In this document: piece by piece, positions 5,205-5,347 of the stretch
How positions within the stretch are numbered: the first letter of the stretch is position 1
How the letters are laid out: the number at the start of each line of letters is the position of its first letter
From: Escherichia phage mEp506
Sequence record: PV340542
Reading direction: 5' to 3' (one strand)
Length of the DNA: 40,128 nucleotides
The notes under the pieces: model-generated
The model's database searches: none
Told to the model about the DNA's origin: nothing
What the model saw: the letters and a program-made list of their open reading frames with translations, nothing else
Program-made: the position numbers and the translations under genes

Positions 5205-5347
5205 GTGAACTTTGGTGGTGTGGTAGGTGGGAGACCCATTTCGACCTGTTTCGGCCTACTTCAATTCGGCAATAGTCCCGCAGGCCTCGCCGCTTTACGT
5301 GCGGCATATTCCCGTCCATGAACCCTTCACCACACCCCAAAGTTCAC
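5205..5347 (-). promoter_or_regulatory. N-leader long inverted repeat (19-20 bp arms, about 104 nt apart) abutting the N RBS; candidate RNase III-type regulatory hairpin
   Basis: Plus-strand gtgaactttggtggtgtggt (5205-5224) pairs with accacaccccaaagttcac (5329-5347) with a single bulge. Confidence 0.45.

Follow-up and report, generated by a model that had tools for sequence, protein, structure and literature searches.

In phage lambda, RNase III cleavage of the N leader reportedly prevents N-mediated repression; the cuts, as reported by Steege in 1987, Kameyama in 1991 and Wilson in 2002, fall at +88/89 and +197/198, at GG/GG and CC/AAA of the conserved core. N is described as repressing its own translation via NutL, from which it is separated by ~200 nt of "highly structured" RNA (PMC5725501, citing Wilson 1997, 2002). 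A passage in PMC5371410 cites Steege 1987 for RNase III sites in the lambda N leader, and the title of Kameyama 1991, as cited in PMC9032294, gives N synthesis as activated by RNase III. The rnc70 form of RNase III, which binds and is cleavage-defective, still regulates N mRNA (PMC8708148). According to PMC3867540, RNase III acts on helices of ~22 bp (two turns) whose distal box is ~11 bp away from the site of cleavage, and the pattern of cleavage is influenced by bulges located at the target.

Bulges and internal loops at phage RNase III sites modulate translation or stability (PMC5371410, PMC3867540). Lambda cIII, lambda sib/int and T7 R1.1 resemble the phage mEp506 hairpin studied here in that their stems are imperfect, ~20 bp long and interrupted at the target by bulges or internal loops (PMC5371410, PMC3867540), but they differ in position, sequence and outcome, and they lack coupling to a nut site. 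In rRNA leaders, distant RNA segments are believed to be joined with the aid of a Nus complex that stays tethered to RNA polymerase (PMC4807359, PMC8632103). The leader-trailer helices of 16S and 23S rRNA are similar to the mEp506 arrangement in that a nut-like Nus-loading site is followed by a long-range helix cut by RNase III (in mEp506 the cut is predicted). However, the rRNA helices, which lie downstream of boxB-boxA-boxC Nus sites, enclose 1.5-2.9 kb, serve ribosome maturation instead of translational control and are without sequence similarity. At suhB, a Nus complex on the leader boxA represses translation by looping, and the authors compare it with lambda N/NutL (PMC5725501); unlike the mEp506/lambda type, suhB has no large hairpin or RNase III step, and the distance from its boxA to the Shine-Dalgarno sequence is short.

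The window analyzed here is the whole 40,128-nt stretch of mEp506 DNA (PV340542), a mosaic lambdoid coliphage that resembles HK97, mEp234, HK106 and HK022. A cI-like repressor gene (7242-7946, minus strand) lies upstream of the pL-N block. The interval between cI and pL (5697-6827, minus strand), the place of rexAB in lambda, is filled by a HicA toxin gene (6573-6827), a HicB antitoxin gene (6122-6595) and an unknown ORF of 153 aa without a Pfam match (5697-6158), all on the minus strand. A similar hicB was found at the corresponding spot in HK106. A terminator at 5691-5670 (minus strand) is located 3' of this HicAB/unknown-ORF block. The sole sigma-70-like site in 4700-6000 is a pL-like promoter (TTGCCA, 17-nt spacer, TAAAGT; 5441..5469, minus strand). 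The predicted pL transcript starts at A5434 on the minus strand (AUCAGCAUG...), in agreement with the annotated pL/+1 of HK106 in both position and start sequence; the start sequence also agrees with the AUCAGCAGG start of lambda. A direct repeat, AATGATAAATT, is present twice, 25 bp apart (5451-5461 and 5476-5486), and overlaps the -35/-10 region of pL. Both copies probably represent half-sites of OL operators; in phage ST2-8624, the corresponding region is annotated OL1/OL2.

The nutL boxA-like sequence CGCACUACU (+11 to +19; 5416..5424, minus strand) was assigned by annotation transfer from HK106 (EF120461, "nutL boxA"), in which position and sequence are the same. The boxB hairpin GCGCU-GACAA-AGCGC (GCGCUGACAAAGCGC; 5358..5372, minus strand) was read from the sequence and was also folded; its counterpart is the annotated boxB in HK106 and lies within the annotated nutL of 933W. 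Between boxA and boxB, the spacer forms a small hairpin, GAUUC-GAAUAU-GAAUC (5377..5392, minus strand), in the MFE and centroid folds. Leaders of Salmonella, Enterobacter and Klebsiella retain this stem, whereas its loop differs; variants seen in related leaders are GAUUCAGAGAUGAAUC and GAUUCAUAACUGAAUC. Neely and Friedman reportedly described in 2000 a dyad symmetry, the "reducer", between boxA and boxB in the nut spacer of H-19B, which we take to be the probable equivalent of the mEp506 5392-5377 hairpin. The long inverted repeat described below is located downstream of boxB and not between boxA and boxB, and the reducer reading of it was rejected on this position. The H-19B reducer is like the mEp506 N-leader hairpin in belonging to the same phage lineage and the same leader RNA, and in being a stem that shortens the effective distance between functional sites.

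Downstream of nutL, the N antitermination gene (4809..5192, minus strand; ATG at 5192) encodes 127 aa of the 933W/HK97 type. Its product matches Pfam PF25694 N_peptide with E = 2.1e-15, and many IMG/VR contigs contain an N that shares 99-100% identity with it. The N leader is ~240 nt long, and sequence reading places the Shine-Dalgarno AGGAGG at 5198..5203 (minus strand). The order pL-nutL-hairpin-Shine-Dalgarno-N is the lambda layout, and pL, nutL boxA, boxB and N are placed correspondingly in the annotated HK106, 933W and lambda records.

The earlier note on this DNA had pointed out an inverted repeat at 5205-5347 with arms of 19-20 bp about 104 nt apart, placed between the nutL boxB and the N ribosome-binding site (AGGAGG, 5198-5203). 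The sequence and a repeat finder located the arms at these coordinates, and the coordinates read from the sequence agree with the placement between boxB and the ribosome-binding site. The 5' arm is GUGAACUUUGGGGUGUGGUG (5328..5347, minus strand) and the 3' arm is UACCACACC-A-CCAAAGUUCAC with A5216 bulged (5205..5225, minus strand); both arms were recovered by the repeat finder, the folds, the stem test and the covariation analysis given below. In the minus-strand RNA, G5347-C5205 to G5337-C5215 form 11 bp. Above the bulged A5216, G5336-C5217 to U5329-A5224 form 8 bp, and G5328·U5225 closes the stem. The hairpin thus has 19 Watson-Crick pairs, one G·U pair and one bulge, measures 143 nt end to end and encloses a 102-nt interior, here called type A (5226..5327, minus strand), for which the MFE predicts a multibranch structure with four small helices. 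The repeat finder reported the arms as 5205-5215/5337-5347 (11 nt, 100%) and 5212-5224/5329-5341 (104 nt between them), and the lengths and separation given in the note are borne out. The stem begins 10 nt from the 3' end of boxB and ends 1 nt from the Shine-Dalgarno sequence.

RNA folding of the leader, which the note had proposed as a check, indicated that the arms pair stably. The long stem was found in both the MFE and the centroid folds of 191-nt and 266-nt leader RNAs, with folding z-scores of -4.3 and -4.0, respectively, and none of 200 shuffles folded equally well. The 191-nt leader fold has an energy of -74 kcal/mol; the arms alone give -31.9 kcal/mol vs. -26.9 kcal/mol for the lambda arms. 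Exact 11-nt inverted-repeat seeds are not rare in the window (five vs. a mean of 1.75 in dinucleotide shuffles). Since the 11-nt seed was not significant against chance, a whole-stem test was used instead (Watson-Crick pairs only, at most one single-base bulge, span up to 200 nt). With its 19 pairs, the whole stem was the best in the 40,128-nt window; the best stems of 100 mononucleotide shuffles averaged 12.9 pairs, with a maximum of 16.

Further exact 11-nt inverted repeats were seen elsewhere in the window. Two with short loops, at 39731-39760 and 39932-39957 near the right end, may be terminators or operators. An 11-nt inverted repeat at 15196/15240 is closely followed downstream by adjacent genes for tRNA-Asn(GTT) and tRNA-Thr(TGT) (15259-15414, plus strand).

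We compared the mEp506 hairpin with that of lambda. The lambda leader (NC_001416) is 222 nt long, with arms GGCUUUGGGGUGUGUG (+81-96) and CACACACC-A-CCAAAGC (+187-202). The 12-nt and 13-nt strands of the mEp506 stem core, CUUUGGGGUGUG and CACACC-A-CCAAAG, are identical to those of lambda, the bulged A included. The two leaders are alike over the first ~33 nt, and their hairpin interiors are unrelated. In both phages the hairpin lies in the pL transcript and has a helix of ~20 bp, a structured interior of ~100 nt, a base adjoining the Shine-Dalgarno sequence and a spacer of ~10 nt after boxB (if the outer CAG/CUG pairs of lambda are counted). They differ in the extension of the lower stem, which is GUGAA/UUCAC in mEp506 and GG/C(U) plus a 2x2 loop plus CAG/CUG in lambda. 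The mEp506 boxB is also P22/H-19B-like, with a GACAA loop, and its N is of the 933W/HK97 type.

On this sequence comparison, the inverted repeat is very probably the mEp506 ortholog of the RNase III-sensitive N-leader hairpin of lambda, its cleavage and regulatory role being assigned by homology. The earlier note had called the structure analogous to the RNase III-processed lambda hairpin and larger. A counterpart it is, as indicated by the identical core, the same order of elements and the conserved pairing; "homologous" is the proper term instead of "analogous". The size claim did not hold, since the span of 143 nt compares with 122 nt in lambda (132 nt counting the outer CAG/CUG pairs) and makes no real distinction between the two. 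Among relatives the hairpin spans 71-229 nt from core to core, i.e., from CUUUGG through CCAAAG, a measure ~10 nt shorter than the arm-to-arm spans quoted for mEp506 and lambda. Position in the pL transcript, a long imperfect helix of about two turns, homology to the lambda stem and selected pairing, all found here, place the structure among the lambdoid N-leader hairpins. It is an ordinary hairpin for a lambda-like phage, of a kind that is textbook for lambda. For leaders of the 933W/HK97 type, no description or annotation of the hairpin was found; in the records of HK106 and 933W, nutL is annotated and the hairpin is not.

We next consider how widely the hairpin is distributed. A blastn search of the leader against phage records gave nearly identical matches in Stx1/Stx2 phages, 933W, HK97, HK106 and mEp234; phi80, VT2phi_272, PA8 and Louie matched the hairpin portion of the query only, at ~90%. 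Folding of 14 leaders gave a common base stem in all 14, with different upper stems and interiors. The wider survey comprised 279 sequences, made up of the window and of loci taken around N genes (four kinds; IMG/VR and GTDB) or by leader similarity; a search of genome contigs with an N alignment contributed four loci, Enterobacter and Klebsiella among them. An anchored search detected the hairpin in 237 of the 279 sequences, and most of the others were variant forms or truncated contigs. Among the variant stems are GCUUUGAGUAGCGCG / CGCGUUACUCAAAGC, which lacks the bulge and occurs in some lambda-N leaders, and Klebsiella stems in which the bulged residue is G. The hairpin also precedes Klebsiella N proteins that are only ~51% identical, as well as lambda N and the phi80 "N", in which a look by eye revealed no evident similarity to mEp506 N. 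The distance from CCAAAG to AUG was 19-21 nt in three N families (manual count), consistent with a constrained geometry. Upstream of the lambda-type N of one IMG/VR contig (L167), hairpin and nutL are lacking and only ...CUAACUGACAAGAGAAUCCAGAUG is left; a deletion or rearrangement may have taken place at the 3' arm, or the end of the contig may have produced an artefact.

Among the N loci, the survey distinguished 39 different arm pairs and 15 or more interior types unrelated to one another. Covariation was counted on an ungapped alignment of the 39 distinct arm pairs. Paired cells reached 96.1%, vs. 80.5% for shuffled and ~40% for slid partners. Double changes were present at 12 of the 19 pairs, and there were 106 compensatory cells vs. 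26 expected, values that none of 500 shuffles reached. The six lower pairs, CUUUGG/CCAAAG, are almost invariant; the upper stem varies, and each of its versions occurs with its complement (GUGUGGU, GUGAAUGCAG, AUGCGAUG, AAAGCG, AUUGGAUG, AUUGCUG and UGUGUGUG). Inclusion in the set depended on the CUUUGG/CCAAAG anchors and on an uninterrupted run of five or more upper pairs, by which pairing is inflated for those pairs. An upper run of at least five pairs is expected by chance in well under 1% of anchor pairs; since the hairpins recur at the same place at such a rate, chance is ruled out despite the selection of the set. G·U pairs are frequent, which indicates pairing in the N-sense RNA and not in DNA or in the opposite strand. 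We concluded that the stem is under selection for pairing on the N-sense strand. Only the overall pattern is mildly new here: the base is invariant and carries a bulged purine, the top covaries, and the interior is hypervariable and mosaic.

The interiors are ~40-200 nt long and unrelated between types, within near-identical stem bases (L002, L009, L010, L018, L147, L149, L150 and others). The type-A interior is ~90% identical in phi80, VT2phi_272 and Louie despite unrelated flanks; in phi80, the flanks and the "N" are both unrelated to those of mEp506. Several leaders are chimeras. In Louie, L147 and L174, an mEp506-type interior lies between a lambda nutL and a lambda N, and in L149 and L150 lambda flanks surround other interiors. 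The sequences indicate clearly that exchange at the hairpin arms happens and that the interior is a mosaic hot spot. When the MFE interior of mEp506 was tested on 14 variants, 98.9% of the cells were paired and one compensatory change, U-A to C-G, was observed; RNAalifold, run on 14 hairpins of type A, left the interior ambiguous and showed hardly any covariation. Because of the ambiguous RNAalifold result and the single compensatory pair, the interior structure is given as a prediction only. The L218 type of interior contains GGUUCGACUCC, a T-loop-like motif, and in L218 and L244 the interior ends with the tRNA T-arm-like GAUGGUUCGACUCCAUC just before the 3' arm. A tRNA in the L218 interior was considered and rejected; ARAGORN called none there, nor in six other leaders.

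By homology with lambda, the hairpin would close off ~140 nt and bring the N-Nus complex on NUTL beside the N start site. The NUTL-bound N would then repress its own translation, and the base of the stem may slightly hinder ribosome access. Host RNase III is expected to bind the ~20-bp helix, which extends for about 11 bp to either side of the bulge, and to cut in the invariant lower stem. The predicted cuts, transferred from lambda, fall between G5337 and G5336 and between C5214 and A5213, with ~11 bp of helix below and 9 bp above the predicted cut site. The ~20-bp helix and the A-U pairs near the site appear to fit the RNase III substrate rules of PMC3867540. Cleavage would place NUTL and N on separate RNAs, the N mRNA retaining a leader of 21 nt; counted in the same way, the lambda leader would be 25 nt. 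Repression would be relieved in this way, and N output may track the level of RNase III, which varies with growth rate and state. Both the cleavage and its effect on N translation in mEp506 are what we infer from the lambda case.

Predicted occlusion of the Shine-Dalgarno sequence by the stem base is weak, as it involves two C-G pairs only. The two central G residues of AGGAGG were predicted unpaired at ~0.3 in the full leader, and at 0.8 and 0.7 after the predicted cut. The weakness of the occlusion favours a role in proximity and autorepression over simple masking. N proteins of the H-19B type depend less on NusB, S10 and boxA than lambda N does, so that N-mediated autorepression may not transfer unchanged.

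Other explanations for the repeat were weighed. The hairpin could be mainly a passive stabilizer or insulator against RNase E, 5'-end-dependent decay or Rho, without a role in RNase III processing or autoregulation. The structure is indeed very stable (arms about -32 kcal/mol, 191-nt leader -74 kcal/mol), an untranslated leader of ~240 nt is a typical Rho target, and what is conserved is the pairing and not the interior sequence. We consider this unlikely, however; such a role leaves unexplained both the near-invariant CUUUGG/CCAAAG and bulge across lineages with different upper stems and interiors and the fixed place between boxB and the Shine-Dalgarno sequence, and the homologous lambda stem is an RNase III substrate in the cited literature. 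That the arms serve chiefly as recombination joints for swapping the interior cassette or the nutL/N modules, with pairing secondary, would account for the 15 or more unrelated interiors flanked by the same stem bases, for the clear chimeras (Louie, L147 and L174; L149 and L150) and for the hairpin-only matches of phi80, VT2phi_272 and PA8 (~90%). But joints need not be inverted repeats of each other, and the arms here are complementary and covary in their upper parts, which requires selection on RNA pairing. This makes the joint function a very unlikely primary one, and arm exchange is better read as a consequence of arm conservation. Far less credible still is a coding or DNA-level feature, i.e., a small ORF, a cruciform or a protein-binding palindrome. 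ORFs do overlap the repeat (5143-5340, minus strand, 65 aa, TTG start; 5227-5433, plus strand, 68 aa), and "hypothetical proteins" are annotated in the equivalent hairpins of PhiR12_2, Louie and phi419. These ORFs are not conserved across interior types, on which ground the small-ORF reading was rejected; arms 104 nt apart are unlike an operator, and G·U pairs with compensatory changes indicate pairing of the N-sense RNA. An intrinsic terminator was also rejected, as a terminator scan placed terminator-like sites only at 5691-5670 and 4890-4878. The 3' arm is followed by CAGGAGGUCUAUAUG; an intrinsic terminator has a short GC-rich stem that runs directly into a U-run.

The hairpin might also be a precursor from which RNase III excises the ~120-nt interior as a stable trans-acting RNA (an sRNA, a decoy or a determinant of phage competition), possibly besides its cis role. 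If both strands were cut, a closed hairpin holding the interior would be set free. Recurring copies of an interior type are well conserved (type A ~90% between phi80 and mEp506 in unrelated flanks), and the predicted interior helices are kept in the 14 variants, with the one compensatory change. Against this, interiors of ~40-200 nt that are unrelated to one another agree with weak constraint just as well as with diversified function, recent exchange may be all that lies behind the conservation of a type, and no Rfam family was matched: a search of 4700-6000 at E up to 10 gave chance-level hits only, the best overlap being bxd_1 with 12.3 bits vs. a gathering value of 75 (E = 8.9). An excised product of this kind is quite improbable. 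Similarly doubtful, and to be regarded as speculation, is a two-part device in which the invariant base (CUUUGG / C-N-CCAAAG with the bulged purine) would be the RNase III/regulatory module and the interior an exchangeable cassette excised as a trans-acting RNA. If true, it would account both for the conservation of each interior type and for the shuffling of interiors among phages with different nut sites and N genes, and the excised RNA would act, e.g., in phage-host or phage-phage competition.

For the preferred reading, a lambda-type N-leader hairpin, the main value lies in annotation, because the hairpin marks the true N start and an untranslated leader. Public records contain "hypothetical protein" ORFs inside the hairpin in PhiR12_2, Louie and phi419, and in BP-4795, phi419 and RefSeq lambda the N start is set at an upstream in-frame codon running into the hairpin. 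The public annotations that overlap the hairpin are L004 583-717, L009 703-837, L013 583-741, L007 787-1236 and L008 138-539. The ORFs in the hairpin and the upstream-extended N starts are likely annotation artefacts.

The survey constitutes a comparative dataset with which to address what RNase III or the N-Nus complex reads, and it adds no new kind of mechanism. The hairpin suggests that the lambda circuit, in which NUTL autorepression is relieved by RNase III, is common to lambdoid phages of the HK97, 933W/Stx, phi80 and Salmonella/Klebsiella types. Such a circuit may tie early gene expression to the growth state of the host. In Stx phages, the RNase III level would thereby connect to the N-dependent cascade that leads to toxin expression, which is an incremental point.
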